Shown here: one piece after another, positions 5,628-59,381 of the stretch
Layout of the letters: each line of letters begins with the position of its first letter
How positions within the stretch are numbered: position 1 is the stretch's first letter
Origin: an uncultured delta proteobacterium
GTDB lineage: Bacteria; Myxococcota_A; Polyangia; Polyangiales; Houyiibacteriaceae
Assembly (NCBI GenBank): GCA_963699755.1
Contig: CAVOVB010000001.1
Span: 384,001 to 448,000, forward strand
Direction of reading: 5' to 3'
DNA length: 64,000 bases
Made by a program: the position numbers and the translations under genes
The notes under the pieces: generated by a model
Seen by the model: only the letters and a program-made list of their open reading frames with translations
Databases searched by the model: none
What the model was told of the DNA's origin: nothing

Positions 5628-5657
5628 AAATGCCGCGATCATGGCGGCGAACATCTA

Positions 5658-6713
5658 GTGACGGAAAAGGTTGTGGGGAACGACACCGCTTGGACTGCGA
5701 GCTTCCTCCTTTCTACAGACCTTCCATCGATCGCTTGGCCGACTAACATCCCCTTCGAGCCTCCAGTCCCAACGATGCTAGATCAGCAAAGCGATCGCAT
5801 GAACATGAGCGCCGAACTGCCCGACCTGGACCTCGCCGTTCGCGTCGGATACGAGATCTCCTACGAGGCCGCGGCGGCGACGCCCGCGCTGGCGACACTC
5901 AAGCCCCGTGAGGATTCCTTTCAGGCCATACGGGAGGAAAGCATTTCTTTCCAGCCCGGATTGGAATGGACGGAGTTCGAAGACGACCACGAGAACACCG
6001 TCTATCGACTCGTCCTGGAACCCGGTCTGAACGTCCTACGTTACGACGCGATCGTGAACGTCCCCAGCCAACGCGAAGACTTCCTTTGGCTCGACGATCC
6101 GCATCCGCCCCACCTGCTGCCGGCCACCATCCTTCGCTACACGGCGCCGTCGCGCTATTGCGACTCCGACAAGCTCCTCGACTTTGCGTGGAACCATTTC
6201 GGGCACCTCCCCAACGGGCTCGAACGCATCCGCGGGATCTGCACGTGGCTCAACGCCAATATCGAGTATCGCACCGGATCGGGTCGCTCGGATCTGTCGG
6301 CCTGGGAAGTCATCGAGCGCCGCTACGGTGTCTGCCGGGATCTCGCTCATGCCGCTGTCGCCCTGTGCCGTGCGTTCAACCTCCCCGCCCGGTATGTGAG
6401 CGGCTTCGTGCCCGACATCGGGGTTTTAGACCCTGGGACGATCCAAGATTTTCATGCGTACTTCGAGGTCTACATGGGAGGCCGTTGGCAGGTTTTCGAC
6501 GCGCGATTTCTCGATCCCCGTATCGGCCGAATTCGGATCTGTGCTGGTTACGATGCCGTGAACTGCGCGGTGAGCACACTCTACGGCGCGGCCGCCCTCA
6601 CCGGGTTCTACGTTTGGTCCTACCAGGTCGATCCCGCCGAGGTGCGGGTCGGCGACCCCTTGGATCTCTCCAAACGCCTTTGCGGCACCCTCGAGATCCG
6701 TCACCACCGGTGA
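5658..6713 (+). CDS. Transglutaminase-like family protein (true start probably downstream, ~5775-5805)
   Basis: PSRYCDSD, GVCRDLAH, PARYVSG, DFHAYFEVY, FDA catalytic Cys-His-Asp motifs. Confidence 0.88.
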   Translation: MTEKVVGNDTAWTASFLLSTDLPSIAWPTNIPFEPPVPTMLDQQSDRMNMSAELPDLDLAVRVGYEISYEAAAATPALATLKPREDSFQAIREESISFQPGLEWTEFEDDHENTVYRLVLEPGLNVLRYDAIVNVPSQREDFLWLDDPHPPHLLPATILRYTAPSRYCDSDKLLDFAWNHFGHLPNGLERIRGICTWLNANIEYRTGSGRSDLSAWEVIERRYGVCRDLAHAAVALCRAFNLPARYVSGFVPDIGVLDPGTIQDFHAYFEVYMGGRWQVFDARFLDPRIGRIRICAGYDAVNCAVSTLYGAAALTGFYVWSYQVDPAEVRVGDPLDLSKRLCGTLEIRHHR

Positions 6714-6759: not shown

Positions 6760-7026
6760 GAGCTTGCCCCGCCCAGCTTGTTCATCGCATTCCAAATCGA
6801 ATCGGGCTGATTCGGAATCGTCCCTACGCCACGGCCACGAGCCCGGCCGCATTTTCCTTCCGCCACCGTGATCGTGTCCGCGTGCACATCCGATTCCACG
6901 CACGTCCAGCTTGTTGCATGGCTCGACACGACCGACGCCCTTCGCATGTAGCTCTGCGCTACGGTCTTTTCCGATTCGGAGCGTACACTCCGGTCTGCGA
7001 TCGGAGTCGGTCGCTACATCCTGACT
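6760..7026 (-). mobile_element. IS110-family (IS1111 group) left-end remnant with 5' transposase fragment
   Basis: Near-identical to ~48470-48725; DVHADTITVA...GTIPNQPDSI; subterminal IR GGTCGCTACAT 7009-7019; CT core 7025-7026. Confidence 0.85.
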
Positions 7027-17259: not shown

Positions 17260-19209
17260 TTAGCTTCGCAACAAGTCGGTTGCCACCGAGACGAAACGCC
17301 CGGGCAGGGAATGCACATCGGGGAGCAGCATCCAGCCGTGCAACCCGAACATCTGCGTCAGGTACGGCTCGCCTTTGTCTCGTACGGCGAGCGTGAGGCA
17401 ATGAGCGCCCAGCTCCCCGGCCTCTCGAAGCGCCTGGCGCACGTCTTCGACGCCGTAGTGACCCTCGTAGTGATCGTAGTCCGTTGGCTTGGCATCGGTG
17501 AGCAGCAAGATGAGGCGACGGCGCGCCCCACTGCGGCCGAGCACCTCGAGGGCATGCCGAACGGCCGGACCAATGCGCGTGTAACCCACCGGCGCGATCC
17601 CGTGCAACCGTTGCAACCCCAAACGCGTGCTGTCTTGGAACCCTTTGACAAGCAAGAATCGGCAGTCGCGCCTCGTGTTGCTGTAGAACGCGCCGATCGC
17701 AAGCTTGGCGGAGGTAGGCTCGAATGCCTCGGCGAGCACCTGTGTGGAATCGCGGACGACGTCGAAAATCCGTTTGCCCGAGACCCAGGAATCGCTCGAG
17801 AGACTTGCGTCGACCAAGATCAGCATGGCGAGCTCGGAGTCGTGCACCTTTCTGCGGAAGTAGATTCGCGGATCCGGATTCCGGCCCGCCAAGAGCGTCG
17901 CCTGCCGATCGACGAGCGCGTCGATGTCGACTTCGCTGCCGTCGAGCTGACGGTTGCGCCAGCGGCGCTCGAGCTCGAGACGTTTGAGCTCCGCTTGAAG
18001 ACGTAGCACCTCCCCGTGCAGTCGCCGGCTCGCTGCAGCAACACTGGAGAATGAACCGCTTGGTGGTGAGGCTTGCTCGTTGACCGTGCACCAGTCGTCA
18101 CGATACTCGCGTCGCTTGAAATTCCATTCGGGATACCGATGGGCGCGACTCGACGGCGGCTCTTCGTGTAGGTCGGCGGTATGCAAGCCGGCCTGTAGAT
18201 CCGCGCGGTAGACCGATTCGGCCGTCTCCGAGCTTCGCGTGAGCTTGCTCAGCTCCAGCTCGCCGAGCGCCTCCTCGTGTTCGGCGAGCTGATCGGAGCC
18301 ATCGAGCTGCTTGCGTCCGCTCTGATACTCGGTGGCGGTGTGCACCTTCTCGAAGGAATGAACCAGAGGATTGTCTCTGTCTTTCTGAGATTCGAGGTCG
18401 ACGTACTCGACCTCGCTGGGCCGGCCCCGCATCTTTCTTTCGGTGCCGCTCGGTAAGTTGCTGTGAGGGTCCTCTGGAGGCTCGAGGGAAGCATTCCAGG
18501 GCCTGGAATGCGGCAGTAGGAGTCCCCAGGGTGATCGATAGTCATCCTGGGCTCTTCTTTTCGAGAGCTCTTGGAGGCGGCGCTCGAAGTCGGACGACGC
18601 TTGGGAAAGACTCCGTTGGTCGTGTTGAGCTCTTGTCGCATCCACGAGATCCCGCTCTACGACATGCGCTGCGGAGTCGTCCTCCAACGGCTCCGGGTCG
18701 CGGCGCAAGATGGTTCGACACGCATTCGAGAAGCAACGGCTCGCAGCGGTCCGGTCATCGAACGGGAACTGACTGCCGACAGTCTCCGCAGCACGATCGA
18801 CGAGCGACTCGGCCCCGGGATAGCGAGCCTCGATATCTTCGTGGATCCTTGGAATCGCGATCAGCATGGCCAAGGTGCGCCTCTGACTCGACCAGTCTCC
18901 GTCGGCAACGAACCCGAGCTCCGACGCGGTTACCCCGATGACGACACGGTAGAGATAAAAGGAGGCCTGCTCCTCTGGGTCCGCAATCCAGGCGACGCTC
19001 TCGGGTAAGACGAGCCTTTCGGGCCCGGCGCCGCCCATGGCTTTGCCAGAAACGACCTCCCACTTCGCGCCAGTGAGCAGATTGCTCAAGGTCTCGAAGC
19101 GAGCTCTTAGGGACTCGAGCGGAGGCTCGACCTCGGCAGCGGAGCTCTTGCCCGCGACTCGCCGAAACGACCGGTAAAGCCAGGCAAACGCTCGCTGATC
19201 CCATTCCAT
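17260..19209 (-). CDS. norD: Nitric oxide reductase activation protein NorD (vWA)
   Basis: YPEWNF, MIDAS DASLSS, GYTRIGPAVRHA, LLTDAKPTDYDHYEG; follows norQ. Confidence 0.9.
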   Translation of the reverse strand: MEWDQRAFAWLYRSFRRVAGKSSAAEVEPPLESLRARFETLSNLLTGAKWEVVSGKAMGGAGPERLVLPESVAWIADPEEQASFYLYRVVIGVTASELGFVADGDWSSQRRTLAMLIAIPRIHEDIEARYPGAESLVDRAAETVGSQFPFDDRTAASRCFSNACRTILRRDPEPLEDDSAAHVVERDLVDATRAQHDQRSLSQASSDFERRLQELSKRRAQDDYRSPWGLLLPHSRPWNASLEPPEDPHSNLPSGTERKMRGRPSEVEYVDLESQKDRDNPLVHSFEKVHTATEYQSGRKQLDGSDQLAEHEEALGELELSKLTRSSETAESVYRADLQAGLHTADLHEEPPSSRAHRYPEWNFKRREYRDDWCTVNEQASPPSGSFSSVAAASRRLHGEVLRLQAELKRLELERRWRNRQLDGSEVDIDALVDRQATLLAGRNPDPRIYFRRKVHDSELAMLILVDASLSSDSWVSGKRIFDVVRDSTQVLAEAFEPTSAKLAIGAFYSNTRRDCRFLLVKGFQDSTRLGLQRLHGIAPVGYTRIGPAVRHALEVLGRSGARRRLILLLTDAKPTDYDHYEGHYGVEDVRQALREAGELGAHCLTLAVRDKGEPYLTQMFGLHGWMLLPDVHSLPGRFVSVATDLLRS

Positions 19210-19988
19210 CAGAACATCAGATTGGCCAGATCCTGCAAGGCTTCCAACTGCGTACGATCATCGGTGATCGGTTGTACGACCGCCGCGTTGCAGGCAACTC
19301 GGGGCGCGACCCCGCTCGCGATCAGCTTTCCGGCCGTCACGAGAAGTCGAGTTGAGACCGTCTCGGCGAGCTGGAGCTCCTCCATGGTGCGTACCTTGCT
19401 CGCAAACTCCACGAGTCGCTTCGCCGTGCCGTTCTCCAGCTCGGCTTCGTGCGCCACGATTTCGGTTTCGACTTTGGCTTCAGGATAGGAGAACCGGTGC
19501 ACCACGAAGCGCTGCCGGGTGGACGGCCGGAGCTCTTTGAAGCCACGCGCATAGCCCGGATTGAAGCTAGCGACGACCATGAACGTGTCGGGCGCAATCA
19601 GGGTTTCGTCCAGCCGGTCGATGTAGAGCTCGCGTCGATGGTCGGTCAGCGAATGAAGGACCACGATGACGTCTTCACGCGCCTCGATGATCTCGTCGAG
19701 GTAGAGAATGGCGCCCGCTCGCACCGCTCGGGTCACGGGGCCATCCTGCCAAATCGTCTCGGCGCCCCTGATCAAAAAACGCCCAACCAGATCGATCGAC
19801 GAGGTTTCGTCGTGGCAGGCCACTGTAATCAGGGGCAAGTCGAGTTGCGCCGCCATCGCCTCGACGAACCGCGTCTTGCCGCAGCCGGTGGGTCCGGCGA
19901 GCAAGAGCGGTAGCCTTTGCCGATGGGCGTGCTCGAACAGCTCGACCTCTCGGCCGACCGAGCGATACCAGGGTGGGGTCCCGCTCAT
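19209..19988 (-). CDS. norQ: NorQ/CbbQ AAA+ ATPase
   Basis: GPTGCGKTRFVE Walker A; YLDEIIEAREDV; ASFNPGY; LRPSTRQRF; STRLL. Confidence 0.95.
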   Translation of the reverse strand: MSGTPPWYRSVGREVELFEHAHRQRLPLLLAGPTGCGKTRFVEAMAAQLDLPLITVACHDETSSIDLVGRFLIRGAETIWQDGPVTRAVRAGAILYLDEIIEAREDVIVVLHSLTDHRRELYIDRLDETLIAPDTFMVVASFNPGYARGFKELRPSTRQRFVVHRFSYPEAKVETEIVAHEAELENGTAKRLVEFASKVRTMEELQLAETVSTRLLVTAGKLIASGVAPRVACNAAVVQPITDDRTQLEALQDLANLMF

Positions 19989-21352
19989 TGCGCCGGAGCC
20001 ACTGCCCTGGTGCCCGTGGGAATCGGCTCCTCAACGTCACCTACGGGCCAGCCATGGCGAATGAAGTTGTAAATGAATGCGAGGATGCCCGACGTGAAGA
20101 GCGTCGCCGCAAGGATGAGCCCGATGAAATGGACCTGCAGCTCCCGCTGAACGTCGAGGAACTCCATCCCCGCGCGACGCTCTAGGTAGACCTGGGCGAC
20201 GCCGGCAATGCCGAACGCAACCGTCATGGCGGTCATGCCGATGTTGGTCGACCAAAACGCATAGATCGCGCTCGGCGTATCGAAGAGCTTGCGACCGGTT
20301 AGTTGCGGCATCGCGTAGCTGATGATCGCCAGGACTAACATCGCGTAAGCGCCCCAAAAAGCCATGTGACCGTGCATCGCGGTCACCAGAGTGCCATGCG
20401 TGTACAGGTTCACCTGCGGAAGTGTATGTGCAATGCCGAGGAAGCCAGCTCCGACAAACGACATGACACAGGTACCCACCGTCCAGAACAAAGCGATTCG
20501 ATTCGGATGGTTTCGACCGCCCTTTCGCGCGAGCGCGAGGCCGTAGATCGCCATGCCCAAGAAGGCGAGCGGCTCGAGCGCGCTGAAGATGCCGCCGATC
20601 CAGAGCCAGTAGTTCGGCGTGCCGATGAAGTAGTAGTGGTGGCCCGTGCCGAGTATGCCGGACAGGAACGTGAAGCCGACGATGACATAGAGCCACTTCT
20701 CGACGATCTCGCGGTCGACGCCGGTGAGCCGGATCAACAGATACGCGAGAATGCCGCCCATGATGAGCTCCCAGACGCCCTCGACCCAGAGGTGGACGAC
20801 CCACCAGCGCCAGAACGCATCGTGTGTCTGATGATCGGTCGGGATCATGCCCGGCAGGTAGAGGACTGCTGCCATCAGGAGGCCGAAGAAGAGCACGATC
20901 GAGGTCGTGGTCATCTTGGGAGCCTTCCAAATCGTCATGCCAATGTTGGCGACGAACAAGAGCACGTCGACGACGACGAGGTAGTCGAGAGGACGCGGAA
21001 TTTCGAGGAACTTGCGCCCTTCCCACCAGTTGAAGTGGAAACCGAAGATCGCCGTGACGCCGACAATCACGAACGCAATCAATTGTACGTACGCGAGCTT
21101 GGGCCAGTAGAGAGGCCGCTCACATTCATCCGGAATGATGTAATACGCGGCGCCCATGAAGCCCGCCAAGAGCCACATCACCAAAAGGTTGTTGTGCGAC
21201 GCGCGCGCGACGTTGAAGGGCACCCAGGGATGCAGCCCGTCCAAGCCGACGTGCGCAAACGCCATGATGAACCCGTACACCAGCTGCAGGCCCAGCAAGA
21301 GCATGCAGGTCGCGAAAAACCAGTACGCTACTTTTTGTGATTCGTACTTCAT
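19985..21352 (-). CDS. norB: cNOR large subunit NorB
   Basis: RWWVVHLWVEGVWE, GTGHHYY, MHGHMAFWGAY, GRKFLE. Confidence 0.95.
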   Translation of the reverse strand: MKYESQKVAYWFFATCMLLLGLQLVYGFIMAFAHVGLDGLHPWVPFNVARASHNNLLVMWLLAGFMGAAYYIIPDECERPLYWPKLAYVQLIAFVIVGVTAIFGFHFNWWEGRKFLEIPRPLDYLVVVDVLLFVANIGMTIWKAPKMTTTSIVLFFGLLMAAVLYLPGMIPTDHQTHDAFWRWWVVHLWVEGVWELIMGGILAYLLIRLTGVDREIVEKWLYVIVGFTFLSGILGTGHHYYFIGTPNYWLWIGGIFSALEPLAFLGMAIYGLALARKGGRNHPNRIALFWTVGTCVMSFVGAGFLGIAHTLPQVNLYTHGTLVTAMHGHMAFWGAYAMLVLAIISYAMPQLTGRKLFDTPSAIYAFWSTNIGMTAMTVAFGIAGVAQVYLERRAGMEFLDVQRELQVHFIGLILAATLFTSGILAFIYNFIRHGWPVGDVEEPIPTGTRAVAPAQ

Positions 21353-22044
21353 AGCCCGCCCTCGCGTTGCTTGGAGAGAAAGATGACCACTTCATTGCGT
21401 TGCTGCTCGGTGAGCCCGAGCGTCGGCATGGTGGTGCCGGGCTTCACGGCCTGGGGGTCGGTGATCCACCTCATCAGGTAGCCTCGATCGAAGCGGTCAC
21501 CCACGAAGTCGAGTGCCGGTCCAATGGCGCCGCCAACCCCGCCCAGGGAGTGGCACGCAGTGCAAACCTGAGAAAAGATCTCCGGTCGCTCGCCGCCAGG
21601 GATCGGAATGGGCGCCGCGCCCGCCAAACCGATCGTGGGTTTCGGAGGAAAGCCGTTGAGGTCCATTCGGCCGATCCACTCGAAGAATGCGTTCATGTCG
21701 TCGATCTGGGCTTCGCTGAAGTCGTACTTCACCATCCGACGCTGCCCGGGATAGACCGCCTCGGGGTCCCGGAGCATCTGAGCGATGAAGGCTGGCCCGC
21801 GACGCTCGTAGACACGCGTCAGCTCGGGCGCGTAGTACGCCCCCTCGCCGAGTAGCGTGTGACAGCCCATGCAGTTGTTGTCCTCCCAGAGCTGCTTGCC
21901 TCGTGCGACCGATTCGGTCAGCTCGCTCGAGTTGGTCTGAGCTGGGATGCGTTGGAACGTGTCGACCGTGAGCCAAATGAAAACCGCACTGAAAAGTAAC
22001 GTTCCAGACAAAAAGAACGCGCGCGCCGCAGACTTCGACAGCAT
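21349..22044 (-). CDS. norC: cNOR small subunit NorC with extra C-terminal cytochrome c domain
   Basis: LSKSAAR...CMGCHTLLGEGAYYAPEL plus second CTACH...PGTTMP; GGAGG RBS. Confidence 0.92.
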   Translation of the reverse strand: MLSKSAARAFFLSGTLLFSAVFIWLTVDTFQRIPAQTNSSELTESVARGKQLWEDNNCMGCHTLLGEGAYYAPELTRVYERRGPAFIAQMLRDPEAVYPGQRRMVKYDFSEAQIDDMNAFFEWIGRMDLNGFPPKPTIGLAGAAPIPIPGGERPEIFSQVCTACHSLGGVGGAIGPALDFVGDRFDRGYLMRWITDPQAVKPGTTMPTLGLTEQQRNEVVIFLSKQREGGL

Positions 22045-22242
22045 GGTCACCTCCTCTCCTCATAAAGATTGGTGAATCCTTCTTTAGAGACCGCGGTCTC
22101 CAGACGATCGGGCCGGATGCTAGTGGGGGCGCGCGCAACTGCAAGTCCGATTGGTGCGTGGCGCAAACTTTGCGCGTGTGGGAAACGCGAGTCCATCCTC
22201 ATCTGTGGGCGTCGTTTCGAGCTCCTGGCACAAACCGCGACC

Positions 22243-25130: not shown

Positions 25131-25235
25131 AGGCGCTCTCCCGACACACGGGACCTTTCGGTGAGCCCGATTGCACAGAACTAGATGTTAGGTCGCGTGG
25201 GGCGCGAAACTGAAAGGGCGTTGGTTCTTCCTAGG
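25131..25235 (-). repeat. Dispersed repeat copy D (inverted)
   Basis: Plus strand ATTGCACAGAA-CTAGATG-TTAGGTCGCGT...GAAAGGGCGTTGGTTCTTCCTAGG. Confidence 0.75.
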
Positions 25236-30450: not shown

Positions 30451-31368
30451 ATGACCCGACCCCGCATTGTCGATCCGGGTGCTACCTTGGCGCTCTCTCG
30501 GCGGACCACGCGTCGCTATTTCCTCCTGAACCCCGACGAAGCGCGGCAGATGGAGCAGGTGTATTGGTATTGCCTCGCCTACGCGGCGAAGCTCCATGGC
30601 GTCTTGGTTCATGCAGCATGCCTCATGTCGACCCATTCCCATGAGGTCATCACCGATGTGCGAGGGGAGTATCCGAAGTTCCTGCAGACGTTTCACCGCT
30701 ACTTGGCGTTGTGCACCAAGGCCTATCGCGGGTGGCCCGAAGAGGTGTTCAACAAGGATAGCAGTGGCGCCCATGTGTTGCTGACGCCGGAAGCCACCAT
30801 GGAGGCCATCGCCTACCTGATTGCCAACCCCGTCGAGGGAGGAGCCGTACGGTATGCCAAAGACTGGCCCGGGGCGCACACCCTGCCGGCGCACGTCGGG
30901 ACGCGCGTCATCCGGGTGAAGCGGCCCAGGCACTACTTCGACCCCAACAATCCGGAGTGGCCCGAGGAGCTCAAGCTTCGCTTGGAGATGCCGGTCGCAC
31001 TCGAGCTCGACTACGGACCCGAGTTCGCTCGAGCGCGCATCGCGGAGCTGGTGCGGGGCCGACAGCATCAGGCGTGGAACAAGGCCAGGCGCACCGGTCT
31101 CGCGTTTGTGGGTCCGAGGCGTGTACTGCGACTTGCACACACCAAGCGCGCCAAGAGCTACGAGGTCTTCGGGAGCGTGAACCCGCAGTTTGCCACTGCA
31201 GGCAACCGAGTGGCTGCCACCGCGGCGGTGAAGCGGCTCCGGGCATTCCGGGCGCATTACGCACGCGCGCTCGCGGCGTGGACCGCCGGCGACCGAAGCG
31301 CGTTCTTCCCGCAAGGCACCTGGTGGATGCGGGTGTGCCATGGGGCGCGCTGTGGGCCTGGGCCGTAG
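30451..31368 (+). CDS. RAYT-like Y1 HUH transposase
   Basis: HAACLMSTHSHEVITD (HUH), AYLIANPVEGG (Y1), FPQGTWW. Confidence 0.82.
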   Translation: MTRPRIVDPGATLALSRRTTRRYFLLNPDEARQMEQVYWYCLAYAAKLHGVLVHAACLMSTHSHEVITDVRGEYPKFLQTFHRYLALCTKAYRGWPEEVFNKDSSGAHVLLTPEATMEAIAYLIANPVEGGAVRYAKDWPGAHTLPAHVGTRVIRVKRPRHYFDPNNPEWPEELKLRLEMPVALELDYGPEFARARIAELVRGRQHQAWNKARRTGLAFVGPRRVLRLAHTKRAKSYEVFGSVNPQFATAGNRVAATAAVKRLRAFRAHYARALAAWTAGDRSAFFPQGTWWMRVCHGARCGPGP

Positions 31369-46007: not shown

Positions 46008-46308
46008 ATCGAGCTGAAACGAGTCCCGGCTCGAGATCGAACCCGCGGCCAACACGAGGACCCGATCCCCGTCAATCGTTCGTGACGCCTGAGTCCGGGA
46101 TGGCTGCTTCGCTGATACCGGCGCCTCGTGCCTCGGGCTCCCCGGCGGTCGCGTCCCCGGAATCCTTGCATCCAGGACCGCCCTCGATCTTCACGGCATC
46201 GTGCTCGCAGGTGATCTTGTCCGATTTGGCCCTACTGGTGATGAGAAGGCGCATCCGACCGAGTAGCCCCCCTGCTCCCGCCGAGTCAGAGCATAGTCGA
46301 CACAAACG

Positions 46309-47780
46309 CAATGCCGTTCACTTAGGAGTCCCGCGGCGGTTTCCCTTTGCGGTTTGAAGGATACTGACTGGCTTTTCGCTTGAACGCTCTAGGGTAGCGG
46401 CGCGAGGAGCGCCGCTCTGGCAGGAGGAAAAGCGACAGTTGTTGCCGCAAGCGTTTGAGGTGCGTGGGAATGGCTCCCGGCTGAGCCACTGCGCACCAGA
46501 GAAACTCGTCACGAATGAATCGGTGGGACGCGATGAAGCTGATCCTCAGAGGGCTTACGTTCGCTTCCTTTGCGACCTGCTCCATCTCGCGACGCACGAG
46601 GTTGTACGCTAGAAGGACGCCCCACAATTCCTGCCGCACTCCCTGCGGAGTTTGACTTCGCATCGGGACGTTGCGCTCGAGCATGTCGGTCTTGAGCTCA
46701 CCGAAGCCCATCTCGATTTCCCATCGCTCGTGATACAGAGCGATGATCTCTTTTGCCGGATACTTCGTTGGGTCCAGCAACGAGGTCAGCAGCATTTGCT
46801 CCTTTCCACCTTTCATCCGATAGCGGATACGACGCACCCTCCAATGCAAGGGCAGCGTCGGCTCCTTTGCTCGTGTGGCCGCACATATCGTAAACTCCAC
46901 GAGCTCATCGGTGTGGGTGGTGCGCGTGACCACTCTGCCCGTTGTATCCGAGCGTGCACGAACCAGAAAATGGCGATTGGCGCCACCTTGGTGCAACGGG
47001 TGCAACACGTTGGAGGCCTGAAACCCGCGGTCCACAATCGTCAGAGAATCGTCGGGAATCTCATCCCAAAGTTGCCGCGCATAGGTGTGCTCGCCCTGCT
47101 TGCAAGGTCCAAAGGCGACCGCAGCAAGCATCTGTGAACGAAGCGCCATCAACGCAACCGCTCGCATCACGGGATATCCGCTGCCTTCTGGTGCGAGGCG
47201 ACCGACAATGAGTCCGAACTCGTGTCGGTTCGCCTCTGAATCGGGAACACGCAACGACGTTCCATCCACTGCATACAACGCCAGACCACGCCACCGACCC
47301 CGATCGGCGCTTTGATGAGCCCACTTGTTCGCGCACTGCTCAAACAGCCACCGCACAGGCTCTTGTCCCAGCCGCGCTCGAGCCTGCGAAATGGCGCTCG
47401 GAGCCACCGTTACGTGACCCGAGCCGGGCAACGCCAGGTCGAGCTTGTTCACCACGTCCGTGATCGACCGGTCCTTGAACAGCGCCATGCCGAGCACCAA
47501 CCACACCACTTGCTCCGCCGGTAGCCGTCTGCGTCTCAGCGTCGCCGTGCCTGTCGCACGCAGCGCCTCTTCAATCCACTCTCGCGGGAGGTGCTTGCGA
47601 AATGCATCGAGCTCCGGCGGTCCACCTAGACTCGCACAACCAGTGACAATCTCCTGCAACATGGGCCAACCCCCCTCGGTGCTGGCCAGTCTGATCTCAT
47701 CGGCGACCGATTAACAGAACCTTTCCACGCCGACTTCCCAAAGCATTTCGATCACTTCCATCACTAACTGATCGGCATTG
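46309..47780 (-). mobile_element. IS4-family element, apparently intact
   Basis: IRs CAATGCCGTTCACTTAG and CTAACTGATCGGCATTG; 10-bp target duplication GACACAAACG (46299-46308, 47781-47790). Confidence 0.95.
46322..47662 (-). CDS. IS4-family DDE transposase
   Basis: [31 protein letters not shown] (YREK). Confidence 0.95.
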
Positions 47781-47824
47781 GACACAAACGCCCTTTCCGG
47801 TTCGCGTCCCTGGCGACATACCAT

Positions 47825-48725
47825 CTGATATGTAGCGACCTGTCTACTGAGAAGATGGGGTTTGCTTTGTTTCCGTTGTGGTTGGTTGAACGGCTCAAAG
47901 AAGCTGGCGAACAAAGCGACGGTTGACCAATCTGATATTCGTGGATCGACCCGAAGGCCGCCGACATGGTCATCATCCGTCGGGAGCTCGCTCAGACTAG
48001 TGGCGCGAGTTGGGCACGGCCGTGCCTATCGCATAGATGTTTCGAGGCTTGTCCTTCCCGTGGGGATGCTTGCCAGCTTCTTTGAACCGTTCAACAAGGA
48101 GGCCCTGCGTGTTCATCTCGGCTTCGCGCTGCCGCCCGACGGCCCACACAAACCCGGCGAGCTCTCGACTCATCGCGGTCACCGCGGTAAGCATCGCCAC
48201 CCCGCGAAGGCTTTGCAGGGCCAGGACCAGCTCTTGCATCCGTGGCGGCGCCTGCTCGACCGCGCGGTCGAGCGCCTTGTCGAGCCGCGCCACGCGCTCG
48301 GTGGCATGCTCGACTTCGTTCTTGTAGTCCACAAACGTCTCCTCTTGCGCCGTATGGTCGAACACCTGCGAATCGAGCCAACGCCAATGCGCCTGGCCCC
48401 AGGCTTGGCTCTGGATATCTCGACGGCGGCCCAGGCGAAGCAAGAATTCCCCAGCCGGTTCGCCCTGCCGAGCTTTTTCATCGCCTTGCGAATCGAGTCG
48501 GGCTGATTCGGAATCGTCCCTACCCCGCGACCACGACCACGGCCGCCTCCTTCGGCCACCGCCACCGTGATCGTGTCCGCGTGCACATCCAGTCCCACGT
48601 ACGTCCAGCTTGCTGTATGGTTCGACATGACCGACTCCCTTCGTATGTAGCTCTGCGCTACGGTCTTTTCCGATTCGCGGCGTAAACTACGGTCTGCGAT
48701 CGGAGTCGGTCGCTACATCTTGACT
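47825..48725 (-). mobile_element. IS1111-group IS110 element with internally deleted transposase and intact ends
   Basis: YVGLDVHADTI; subterminal IRs ATGTAGCGACC 47830-47840 and GGTCGCTACAT 48708-48718; CT at both junctions. Confidence 0.88.
47885..48095 (-). ncRNA. Predicted seekRNA/bridge RNA in the IS1111 3' non-coding end
   Basis: Closed by ~24-bp inverted repeat; contains AACATCTA and ACTAG (target match) and ATATCAG (donor match). Confidence 0.65.
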
Positions 48726-48743
48726 AGTACCGCGAAATTCGGC

Positions 48744-49791
48744 TGTAAGCCCAATATAGAAATGTCGGGTTTGTGCCAGATTCAAATGTCGGGGTTACCC
48801 GCCCCCGATGGACTCAGGGCTCGTCGTCATGAGCCGGCGCGAGATCGAGCGAGCGCATGTGATGCGCGCGATTGAGGAGCGCCGGCTGACCCAGAAACAA
48901 GCCGCTACGCAGCTGCGGTTGAGCGTGCGTCAGATCGAAGAAGGCATTCGGAAGACTCGTGCGCAGCGTTGCAAACGCATTCAGCAGCCGCGTCACCGTC
49001 GCGATCGCACGGGCGAGCTTGTGCAGATCGACGGCTCGGACCACCACTGGTTTGAGAACCGCGGTCCGAAATGCGTGCTCCTAGTCTACGTCGACGACGC
49101 GACGGGCAAGCTCATGGCGCTCCGGATGTGTGAGTCGGCGTTGAGCTACTTTCACGCGACGCGCGGCTATCTAGAGCGTCACGGCAAGCCGGTGGCCTTT
49201 TACAGGGACAAAGCGGGGGTGTTCCGCGTAATGCCAAGAGTCCCAGGGCCGGCGACGGCTTCACGCAATTTGGCCGCGCCATGACCGACCTCAATATCGA
49301 CGTGATTTGCGCCAATACGCCCGCGGCCAAAGGCCGCGTGGAGCGCGCACACCAAAGGCTTCAAGACCGGCTCGTTAAGGAGCTCCGGCTGCGCGGCATC
49401 TGCACGATGGACGACGCCAATCGGTACTTGCCCGAGTTCATCGAGGACTACAATCGGCGCTTCGCACGGGCCGTCCGAAAACGCCAACAACAAGAAGAAC
49501 AGGAGCTCGTCCGCTCCGCCAAGAGCAAGCGCGAGCAGCGCATCGTGCGCGACCGCTTCGCGGACCGGCTGCCGCCTCCGGGACCCTGAGCCGACCGGCC
49601 CGCGCGAGGCCTACCGACGCCCTCTCAAGCCATCCGCCCTCTTGCCCCCACGGCGACGTTCCCCCAGACGCACCGACGTGTTCGCCCTGCAGAAACCGCC
49701 GTCAGACGCAGCTTCCGGCCGGCCCGCACCCGGCTCCTCCCCGACATTTCAATCTTGGAGAACTAGCCGACGCCTCAGTTTGGTTTTGACA
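48744..49791 (+). mobile_element. IS1202-family (ISNCY) element, degraded
   Basis: TGT...ACA ends, repeated AAATGTCGG/CCGACATTT; GELVQIDGSDHHWFE, VDDATG, AKGRVER; deletions and frameshift. Confidence 0.8.
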
Positions 49792-49829
49792 TGGCGCTCA
49801 CCTTGAGCCCGATGGGCTAAGAGGCGGGT

Positions 49830-50978: not shown

Positions 50979-51866
50979 ATGACGCTTCCTCGGCGCGTGG
51001 TCCCGAACGCGACCTACTTGGTAACCCGCCGGTGCCTCGGGCGACGCTTTCTCCTTCGTCCTGACCGCATCCTCAATCAGGTATTCGTCTACTGCCTCGC
51101 CCGGGCCGCCGAAAAGCACGGCGTCGAGGTCCACGCCCTGGGTGTGATGAGCAATCACCATCACCTGGTTGTGACCGACGTTCAGGGCGTGCTCCCCGAC
51201 TTTTTGATGAGCCTCCATCGCACTCTGGCGATGTGCATCAAGCGGCTCCGAGACTGGGATGAAGTGGTGTGGGAGCCCAACGTTTCGACGAGCGCCGTCG
51301 AGCTCACCGGGCCCTCCGAAATCCTCGACAAGGTCGCCTACACGATTCTCAACCCGGTGAGCGCAGGGCTCGTGCGCGCGCCGCACTGCTGGCCGGGGGT
51401 GCTCAGCACGTGCGCCGAGCTTGCGCGGGGCACGCTCGAGGCCAAAAGGCCCCCGGTGTGGTTCAAGGACAGCGCACCGAAGACGGCGAAGCTTCGATGG
51501 ACGGTGCCACCGAGCTTTGTGCGCAAGGAAGCCTACCTCGATGCGCTCGGCAACCTGGTCGGGAGCCGCCTTCGTGAACTCCGCGTCGCCCATCGCCGTT
51601 CGGGCAAGGGCTATCTCGGAGGCATCCGGGTTCGAAAGACGCGCGTGACGGACCGGCCCAACACCCGGAAATCCCGCTTCGGCCCAAGCCCCACGTTCTC
51701 GGCCCTGACGCGGAGGAAGTGGCTCGAGGTCGTGAAACGCCTTCGCGCGTTTCGAAGAGCGTATCGCGAAGCCTATGCGGCGTGGCGTCAGGGCGAGTCG
51801 AGCGTCGAGTTCCCGCTCGGCACCTGGTGGGTCGTCCGCTACGCCGGGGCCCAGGCAGCGACCTAG
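50979..51866 (+). CDS. RAYT-like Y1 HUH transposase
   Basis: YLVTRRC, VMSNHHHLVVTD, AYTILNPVSAGLV, FPLGTWW. Confidence 0.85.
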   Translation: MTLPRRVVPNATYLVTRRCLGRRFLLRPDRILNQVFVYCLARAAEKHGVEVHALGVMSNHHHLVVTDVQGVLPDFLMSLHRTLAMCIKRLRDWDEVVWEPNVSTSAVELTGPSEILDKVAYTILNPVSAGLVRAPHCWPGVLSTCAELARGTLEAKRPPVWFKDSAPKTAKLRWTVPPSFVRKEAYLDALGNLVGSRLRELRVAHRRSGKGYLGGIRVRKTRVTDRPNTRKSRFGPSPTFSALTRRKWLEVVKRLRAFRRAYREAYAAWRQGESSVEFPLGTWWVVRYAGAQAAT

Positions 51867-58301: not shown

Positions 58302-59381
58302 ATGCCAAGCGTCTCGCCGAAGCCCACCGAAATCATCGTGGGCGTGGATACACACAAGCACCAACATGTCGCATTCGCGATCGATGGACTGGGCCGCGTC
58401 GCCGCCGAGCCTATCACGATTCCCGCAACGGGGGCCGGCTATGCCCAACTGCTTGCATGGGCCGATGCGCTGGGCACCGTTCACGCCTTTGGGGTGGAGG
58501 GTTGTGGCTCCTACGGAATCGGTCTGGCACGCTTCCTTCGGCGCCATGGTCGTAGTCTGCAAGAGGTCGCTCGCCCTGTTCGCCGAGGGGAGCGTCGAAA
58601 GTCTGGAAAGAGCGACGCGATCGATGCCGAACATGCCGCACGCACCATCCTCACCAGCACAGGAACTGCGACTCCAAAGCTCGCGAACGGTCCTGTGGAG
58701 GCGCTCCGACTCATCAAAATCGCCCGAGATACAGCGGTGAAAGCGCAGTCGATGACCATGATCACGCTCAAGGCCATGGTCGTCACAGCGCCCAGCGGGT
58801 CGCGCGAACGAATCGAGCCGCTCAACAACCACCAGCTCGTCCTGGCATGCTCCGCTCTCGATTCGTCGGAGGCAGTGTCCGACCCCGAAGTCGCCGTCCG
58901 GTACGCACTCGGTGCGCTCGGCCGCCGGTGGCTACAACTCCACGAGGAGATCAAGACGCATACCGCTTATCTCAAGGAGCTCACGCGAGCGTCGGCGCCG
59001 GAGCTGGTCGACACGTTCGGAGTCGGGTTCGACAGCGCAGCCGAGTTTCTCATCGCGGCCGGTGACAATGCCGACCGTATTCGTTCCGAAGCGGCTTTCG
59101 CCAAGCTCTGCGGAGCATGTCCGATCCCCGCAGGGTCGGGCATGACCAACGGTCGTCATCGTTTGAACCGAGGCGGTAATCGCCAAGCCAATGCCTCACT
59201 CTATCGAATCGTCATCGTCCGGATGCGCTGGCATCCCGCCACCATGGCGTACGTCGAACGCCGCACTGCCGAAGGTTTGTCGAAGAAGGAGATCATTCGT
59301 TGCCTCAAGCGTTTCGTCGCTCGGGAGATCTATCGCCTCCTGCCAAGACCAAGTTCTGCGAGTCTGCCAAAAGCCGCCTAG
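58302..59381 (+). CDS. IS110-family DEDD recombinase
   Basis: GVDTHK, GVEGCGSYG, GKSDAIDA, PAGSG, RLNRGGNRQAN. Confidence 0.95.
   Translation: MPSVSPKPTEIIVGVDTHKHQHVAFAIDGLGRVAAEPITIPATGAGYAQLLAWADALGTVHAFGVEGCGSYGIGLARFLRRHGRSLQEVARPVRRGERRKSGKSDAIDAEHAARTILTSTGTATPKLANGPVEALRLIKIARDTAVKAQSMTMITLKAMVVTAPSGSRERIEPLNNHQLVLACSALDSSEAVSDPEVAVRYALGALGRRWLQLHEEIKTHTAYLKELTRASAPELVDTFGVGFDSAAEFLIAAGDNADRIRSEAAFAKLCGACPIPAGSGMTNGRHRLNRGGNRQANASLYRIVIVRMRWHPATMAYVERRTAEGLSKKEIIRCLKRFVAREIYRLLPRPSSASLPKAA

Follow-up and report, generated by a model that had tools for sequence, protein, structure and literature searches.

A deleted IS110-superfamily element with a predicted guide RNA lies in the spacer of a dif-like site within an ISCR-like ori end in an uncultured Polyangiales bacterium

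Comparison of a partly deleted insertion sequence with its homologues indicates that a known mechanism, RNA-guided insertion by IS110-type elements, is directed here at a new target class, the dif-like site carried by the ori end of an ISCR-like element. The sequence lies in a stretch of 64,000 nucleotides from an uncultured bacterium of the Polyangiales, the whole of which we call the window. The ends of the element, the two-loop fold of its RNA, the covariation between its guides and flanks and its fixed insertion point are established by sequence comparison, as is the identity of the interrupted repeat as an ISCR-like ori end resembling the host's dif; we consider it highly likely that the element moves like IS621 and ISEc11 and is set to the spacer of this ISCR-borne dif-like site, which is abundant and dispensable. 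A first-pass annotation, made from the letters of the window, had proposed RNA-guided targeting of the repeat core, and this proposal is supported by guide/flank covariation across homologues together with repeated insertion at one position; the repeat itself, which it had taken for an anonymous new class, proved to be an ISCR-like ori end with a dif-like site.

The element (47827..48725, minus strand; 899 bp, against 1515 bp in full-length copies) is an internally deleted member of the IS110 superfamily with the layout of IS1111. It is 95% identical to a full-length copy on contig C7 (852 of 899 aligned bases), relative to which 279, 1, 327 and 9 bp have been deleted. Two intact 1515-bp copies, each with a 412-aa open reading frame (ORF), were found, both on contig C7 of the same genome (G000), although with bin contamination of 9% they may come from another cell than the window copy. 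The left end (48708..48725, minus strand) comprises a 7-bp extension and an 11-bp subterminal inverted repeat (IR), and the right end (47827..47846, minus strand) a −35-like hexamer, the 11-bp subterminal IR and a 3-bp extension; the two IRs are perfect and stand 7 bp (left) and 3 bp (right) from the element ends. With the boundaries at 47827-48725 and these IR offsets, the second AG is part of the target. The AG had been read as a duplicated core, a reading that we abandon because several homologues have AA or AC on the right. The ends of the window copy, when joined, give TAGACA-N17-CAAGAT, as had been read from the sequence, and those of the full-length copies give TTGACC-N17-CAAGAT, a promoter-like spacing among ends for which the end finder itself demanded TTGAC. 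The end-to-end joint was absent from the contigs of four runs (two DNA, two RNA) that cover the element, contigs being able neither to prove absence nor to reveal a small RNA. The joint where the first deletion sits is present in one run, possibly the source sample. The left-end remnant of a second copy (6766..7026, minus strand) occupies the equivalent position in another repeat, starting, as the first-pass annotation had recognized, at the equivalent CT|AG (7026, minus strand). Close homologues are labelled as uncultured Polyangiales or deltaproteobacteria, and the sources that hold the element are mainly metagenomes of sediment, estuary and salt marsh. Elsewhere in the window, a further IS110-family transposase gene lies at 58302-59378.

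The transposase gene of the window copy is a pseudogene (47997..48628, minus strand) from which codons ~57-150 and ~242-351 are deleted, with loss of E64, D102 and D105 in the first deletion and of the SG motif in the second; neither of its remnant ORFs has a Pfam match. The full-length transposase matches both PF01548 (DEDD_Tnp_IS110) and PF02371 (Transposase_20) and scores above the cut-off for NF033542, and its catalytic D-E-D-D and S residues, mostly deleted in the window copy, align with those of IS621, so that the full-length copy has both the domains and the residues that define the IS110 superfamily. The intact 412-aa ORF extends into the RNA region, its stop codon being the TAG of the left guide. 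The IS1111 label given earlier holds for the layout: IRs within the 11-13-bp range stand subterminally, with 7 bp outside the left one and 3 bp outside the right one, a long non-coding region follows the transposase gene, and the RNA's top-strand match lies 5′ of its bottom-strand match, the order of IS1111-type seekRNAs. The label does not extend to the transposase, which is closer to those of ISEc45 (40.8% identity over 92%) and ISSso6 (40% over ~90%), has only 27.5% identity to that of IS4321 over 61% of its length and, by pairwise similarity, lacks full-length relatedness to the 330-350-aa transposases of the group. On these sequence grounds the element has an IS1111 layout, yet should not be placed in the core IS1111 family.

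Downstream of the transposase gene lies a predicted bridge/seekRNA (47885..48095, core 47913-48063, minus strand) in which a long outer stem would enclose a target-binding and a donor-binding loop. Folding of 47885-48095 (minus strand) gave z = −5.7 for the single-sequence minimum free energy (MFE) structure. Guides falling in paired stems had been named in advance as an outcome that would count against the idea, and the MFE structure does pair the left-target with the left-donor guide; this helix was rejected, as it is not conserved (58% of cells paired across homologues). A five-helix fold that leaves the guides in loops had 91% of cells paired, against 32-51% for slid controls, a figure biased towards the model because the helices were drawn by hand on the very MAFFT alignment that was scored. 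In the loop-out fold, 8 of 23 pairs (32 cells) carried changes on both sides; RNAalifold on the MAFFT alignment returned two helices only (9 pairs). No Rfam family matched the window at gathering score.

The motifs that the first-pass annotation had listed lie where it placed them. The right-target guide (TAGATGTT, 48034..48041, minus strand) is the complement of the target's top strand to the right of the cut. The proposed 11-nt left guide (CTAGTGGCGCG, 47997-48007) had to be shortened: its CGCG falls in a conserved stem, which leaves (A)CUAG, 4-5 nt, as the left match. We place the left-target guide at 47995..48001 (minus strand), consisting of ACUAG and a further 2 nt that vary along with bases 3-4 at the left end of the element; these 2 nt are TC, AC or TA in most homologues, following each element's own left end, and by analogy may resemble the handshake positions of IS621. 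The left-donor guide (47932..47938, minus strand; CTGATAT on the plus strand) corresponds to the final 5 nt of the right end followed by AG. A right-donor guide of 4 nt (47969..47972, minus strand) is tentative, being a weak match found by eye whose register differs among homologues. RNA and target match over short stretches, 4-5 nt on the left and 5-8 nt on the right. The site of the window copy itself reads ATGGT, one mismatch to the guide, and the two full-length C7 copies have U for C facing the G, requiring a wobble pair.

We measured covariation as the number of nucleotides, counted from its start, over which the right flank has a complement in the element's own 3′ region, using 16 elements from homologues in genomes and metagenomes; left out of the set were an unpublished locus (L067, genome G313), three duplicates of close copies, five loci lacking the 3′ region, three in which the script located no end, and three near-duplicates. 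The right flank was matched over 6.7 nt on average by an element's own RNA and over 4.6 nt when flanks of other elements were used (0 of 100,000 permutations), and the left flank over 3.2 and 2.0 nt, respectively (1 of 100,000 permutations; n = 14), with P values that overstate the significance because related elements have targets in common. The left-donor guide (last five right-end bases plus AG) was found for an element's own end in 16 of 16 cases, compared with 40% for the ends of others. Across homologues, the guide matches occupy fixed slots in the alignment. These observations bear on the possibility that the motif matches arose by chance and that the window element is inert junk, which we judge very improbable. 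The transposase gene of the window copy is indeed destroyed, and the guide-matching 10-mer (ACTAGATGTT) is not enriched in the window (18 occurrences with up to two mismatches against a chance mean of 18.5), nor across the genus against a reversed control; but chance is contradicted, at the level of the family, by the guide/flank covariation, the conserved fold and the constant point of insertion.

That point lies 2 bp into the spacer of the dif-like site, repeat sequence adjoining the element on its left side in 14 of 15 close copies and on its right side in 11 of 17, the second C7 copy included. Insertion of same-guide homologues at unrelated sequences had been put forward as a possible refutation of RNA guidance: the flanks just counted speak for guidance, whereas the unrelated ones (6 of 17 on the right, 1 of 15 on the left) do not fit it. 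All six unrelated right flanks retain AG, and by analogy they could result from 'half-match' recombination, which is reported for IS621. Two types of guide occur among close copies, type II having four bases changed. Type I copies with repeat on the right occupy sites with a 7-bp spacer in seven of seven cases, and type II copies 8-bp sites in three of four, the exception (L012) lying in a 7-bp site (Fisher P = 0.024, for copies that are not independent).

As first reported, ACTAGATGTT is exact at 25180-25189, in the empty repeat copy 'D' (25149..25233, plus strand); it also occurs exactly at 5650-5659 (minus strand), outside the repeat core. As a target it is not sufficient: in 55 genomes of the genus, just 45 of 98 exact empty copies have strict repeat-core context. 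Since 53 of the 98, roughly half, do not have this context, either a further source of specificity is needed or off-target insertions have been purged. Among 26 intact repeat copies in G000, the 10-mer is exact in none and has one mismatch in seven; set in register against the host's dif, the guide mismatches at 7 of 10 positions. One could propose that the site is chosen mainly by protein or DNA context (bound XerC, or the structure of the ori end) and that the short RNA match only sets the position of the cut. The left flanks do match the whole arm, though the RNA matches just 4-5 nt there, and L012 and the six right flanks misfit their guides; the 10-mers outside the strict core also suit this proposal. 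However, more distant homologues carry different guides and are inserted in unrelated sequences to which those guides correspond, and selection against insertions into genes could yield an equal bias; we regard primary choice by context as unlikely and favour choice by the RNA. A separate idea, that empty perfect sites are scarcer in genomes carrying the element (2 of 37 versus 43 of 188, P = 0.013), was dropped because two 'IS-free' genomes rich in perfect sites hold left-end remnants and the patterns do not nest. No collinear empty site across a repeat was found in the 44 relative loci examined. Some homologues of 50-55% identity (L061 and L063; also L062, L069 and L081) are inserted at CT|AAC in attC-looking sites; an attC motif test on the targets of distant homologues was positive in 2 of 18, and in 0 of 16 with a shorter range, and serves as a lead only. 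A relative of 79% identity with other guides (L016) has a short segment between two right ends in inverted orientation.

The repeat unit is ~103 bp long, with 57 profile matches in G000, some of them halves, that cluster in islands, mainly in direct orientation within an island. Of 54 further genomes of the genus, 43 contain its core pattern; of 346 genomes outside the genus, none does. An IS91-family gene with PF04986 and PF14319 domains and ~40% identity to ISCR1 and ISVsa3 precedes the repeat: in three of the four close G000 gene copies that reach the C-terminus, the repeat begins 119 bp past the last aligned codon, and the repeat model matched behind the gene at all 10 genus loci examined; the window remnant and a distant fragment of the gene have no repeat at that spacing. 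The last 25 bases of the repeat resemble the ends of the enterobacterial elements compared, and the unit stands where an ori end does, ~200-250 bp behind a Y2 transposase gene in the same orientation and with the ori motif at its end. The DNA that lies between repeats has counterparts of 70-95% identity in relatives, at places where no repeat flanks it, and homology to relatives often ends within ~55 bp of a G000 repeat. These breaks fit ori ends beside captured segments and are no proof of Xer crossovers. Two other identities for the repeat were considered. That of an attC or REP hairpin was rejected, since the repeat folds poorly (mean z of −0.40 and −0.32, below −2 in 2 of 26 and 1 of 26 copies), and 26 copies have almost no consensus structure; that of the attachment site of the islands' integrases seems less likely, these genes lying 0.7-143 kb from the nearest repeat on shared contigs. 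Most of the integrase frames presumably end in tRNA-like stretches, judging by eye.

The copy that serves as target in the window has been broken three times, by an IS1202-like element, by the RNA-guided element and by an IS4 element. Its first 32 bp (49793..49824, minus strand) were split off by a decayed IS1202-like (ISNCY) element (48744..49792, plus strand). The left part of the target (48726..48743, minus strand) then consists of 5 bp, a XerC-like arm (48728-48738; 9 of 11 positions as in the left arm of dif) and the first 2 bp of the spacer, and the right part (47781..47826, minus strand) of the other 5 bp of the spacer, a XerD-like arm (47811-47821) and the start of the oriIS motif. Within that motif lies an IS4-family element (46309..47780, minus strand) with a 10-bp duplication, beyond which the oriIS-end tip remains (46292..46308, minus strand). 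Two repeat copies (window 46309-47780; C1:1554887) have IS4-family ends at position ~95 of the ori motif.

A motif scan for the host's dif gave two hits, one of them a repeat copy and the other dif itself (C3:687011; ATTTCGCAGAA CCTATA TTATGTAAACT). It occurs once in G000, and octamers resembling the KOPS motif flip there (90:18 before, 3:14 after); across the genus, 42 of 55 genomes carry it, 40 of them as a single copy. The host encodes XerD, above cut-off, and a best XerC candidate that falls slightly below it (324 versus 335 for TIGR02224). The repeat has the layout of an xrs, two 11-bp dif-like arms around a spacer of 6-8 bp: its arms match dif at a mean of 8.2 of 11 positions on the left and 6.6 of 11 on the right (XerD-like) side, with a spacer of 7 bp in 17 of 26 copies and of 8 bp in nine (one of these mis-parsed), compared with 6 bp in dif. 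Genome-wide, 20 of 53 matches to the dif arms fall in the repeat, against 1 of 295 for shuffled arms. We surveyed 31 ISCR-like loci (the 30 best of a longer list and one more) for sites agreeing with dif at 16 or more of 22 positions. Such a site stands 130-167 bp past the gene at 16 of the 31, among them 10 of the 21 loci from outside the genus, and its XerC-like arm faces the gene in every case; the ends of four enterobacterial ISCRs scored 11-13, none reaching 16 of 22, and shuffles did so once in 465. ISCR-like elements of other families have near-perfect 11-6-11 sites with variable spacers at the equivalent place.

The IS1202-like elements provide an independent reading of the same sites. 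Elements of the IS1202 type are described as inserting 5 bp from the XerC arm (10.1101/2022.12.17.520857; PMC10132070), and the elements here share TGT..ACA ends, a ~440-aa transposase, a 5-bp duplication (perfect at C11, unequal 5-mers at C7) and the distance of 5 bp to that arm; an intact relative on C7 encodes 441 aa and passes NF033594. In the window, the left end stands 5 bp from the XerC-like arm; this distance holds for left ends at three repeats and at dif, and a fifth abuts another copy of itself. An IS30-family element lies within the IS1202-like element in two repeat copies (L087 and L088; C11 and C7). The placement of IS1202-like elements thereby supports, independently of the RNA-guided element, the view that ISCR-like ori ends of the Polyangiales carry sites read like dif.

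We think it somewhat more probable than not that XerCD act on the dif-like site of the repeat. A less likely alternative accepts RNA-guided targeting and holds that the target is only ISCR ori-end sequence, its likeness to dif being a non-functional leftover or else marking a site at which the ISCR protein or an integrase of the island acts. The degenerate right arm and the 7-8-bp spacers of the genus would suit it, as would the tendency of homology to end near the outer edges of the repeat and not in the spacer, which suits ori-end insertion over an Xer crossover. Against it, IS1202-type elements treat repeat and dif alike, on the same side and at the same 5 bp, and the near-perfect 11-6-11 sites recur at the equivalent place in other families; a spacer of 7-8 bp is also unexceptional, since that of cer is 8 bp and 6-8 bp is the usual range (10.1101/2022.12.17.520857).

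Under the explanation that we prefer, RNA-guided insertion into a dif-like site, the element would derive from a DEDD (IS110-superfamily) insertion sequence and be non-autonomous, one loop of whose 3′ RNA would pair with both target strands and the other with the joined element ends. The target loop would be set, in this genus, to the central spacer of the dif-like Xer site. Solo copies of the ori end that carries this site stand, in their dozens, between the gene blocks of genomic islands. By extension from IS621 and ISEc11, formation of a circle would create the junction promoter, from which transposase and RNA would be transcribed, and strands would be exchanged at AG. Because the guide reads the spacer, the part in which the repeat differs from dif, the abundant dispensable site would be used and chromosomal dif avoided, and insertion, by splitting the two arms, would presumably inactivate the site. 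The existence of full-length copies makes mobilization of the window copy in trans plausible, by the transposase of either intact copy; it keeps target-like flanks, with the one mismatch, and excision of ISEc11 reportedly requires such flanks (PMC11187229).

Several features recur in systems described elsewhere. IS4321 and IS5075 reportedly insert at the ends of Tn21. Members of the IS1111 family with seekRNAs include ISEc11, ISKpn4 and ISPst6 at attC and ISPa11 at REP (PMC11187229); with that family the present element has in common the 11-bp subterminal IRs with 7- and 3-bp extensions, the downstream non-coding region, the order of top- before bottom-strand match, the promoter-like spacing of the joined ends, natural retargeting and the choice of a recombination site belonging to another element as a safe place to insert, whereas here the target is the spacer of a dif-like site in an ISCR-like ori end and the 412-aa transposase overlaps the RNA. 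Separate target and donor loops, D-E-D-D and S residues and, by our conjecture, handshake-like positions are shared with IS621 (PMC11208160, PMC11208158), from which the element differs in that its RNA lies in the right end, the order of guides is reversed and several homologues keep only the first base of AG in their targets (AA, AC). The IS1202 family (ISAba32 subgroup; 10.1101/2022.12.17.520857, PMC10132070) also targets Xer sites, but with a DDE transposase and by inserting beside the site, dif included, whereas the RNA-guided element goes into the spacer itself, and no insertion of it at dif was observed. The host element's Y2 transposase is ~40% identical to those of ISCR1/ISCR2 of the IS91 family (PMC6218425, PMC13181058, PMC13393415), with which it shares an ori end ~220 bp behind the gene, a similar terminal motif and solo ori ends beside captured DNA; unlike many Polyangiales elements, the four enterobacterial ends compared have no dif-like site. 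Numerous additional dif-like sites, interspersed among blocks of accessory genes, are known from Acinetobacter pdif/dif modules and the hybrid dif-like site of Tn6022 (PMC12907356, PMC11014353), in contrast to which the site described here belongs to the end of a rolling-circle element, has a 7-8-bp spacer and is mainly in direct orientation. Judged by titles and the opening lines of abstracts, no paper that we found describes an IS110/IS1111 element directed against dif, other Xer sites or the ends of ISCRs, nor dif-like sites within such ends; supplementary target tables may also bear on novelty.

On our reading, Xer/dif-like sites join attC, REP and transposon ends as safe targets of RNA-guided IS110-type elements, and the two natural guide types, which track a one-base change in spacer length, are suited to gauging the slack of the target loop. 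A single 103-bp unit is struck by IS1202-type, IS4 and two IS110-type elements. The finding also bears on how ISCR elements move and gather genes; according to one report, as of 2018 transposition had been shown for no ISCR (PMC6218425). More speculatively, and with distinctly less confidence than in the targeting itself, we suggest that the ISCR-like elements of these myxobacteria rely on host XerCD, acting at a site in the ori end, for the resolution or integration of rolling-circle products, building gene arrays, and that at least two RNA-guided IS110-type elements are programmed against that end, one of which reads the Xer spacer, discriminates against dif, disables the site and has switched guides with the 7- and 8-bp classes, which would amount to an RNA-guided conflict over a host recombinase site.

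Other occupants of these loci were also recorded. The second IS110-family element, likewise with a downstream non-coding region and in opposite orientation, was traced at C7:11108-12600 (minus strand), C1:1558549, C1:1543398 and C7:15590, and is located at the ori-end tip in three of four probe matches; its RNA region matches the flank at 8 of 9 positions, by eye. At two loci (L165 and L166; genomes G184 and G283), the start codon of a truncated RNA-guided element adjoins an ISCR-like ori end, possibly through reverse insertion. Behind one ISCR-like gene (L169, genome G014) stand two tandem repeat copies with the same left halves and with right halves of the 7-bp and 8-bp type, the latter an exact match to guide type II. 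The repeat islands also hold tyrosine integrase and relaxase/NikA genes (C7:7621-8976, C7:46400-47991, C1:448030-448995 and C1:463714-464634). In the window, RAYT-like Y1 transposase genes lie beside short tandem repeats (50979-51866 and 30451-31365), and the starts of four ORFs (21349-22050, 19985-21352, 19209-19988 and 17260-19209) look, by eye, like those of nitric oxide reductase genes norCBQD.
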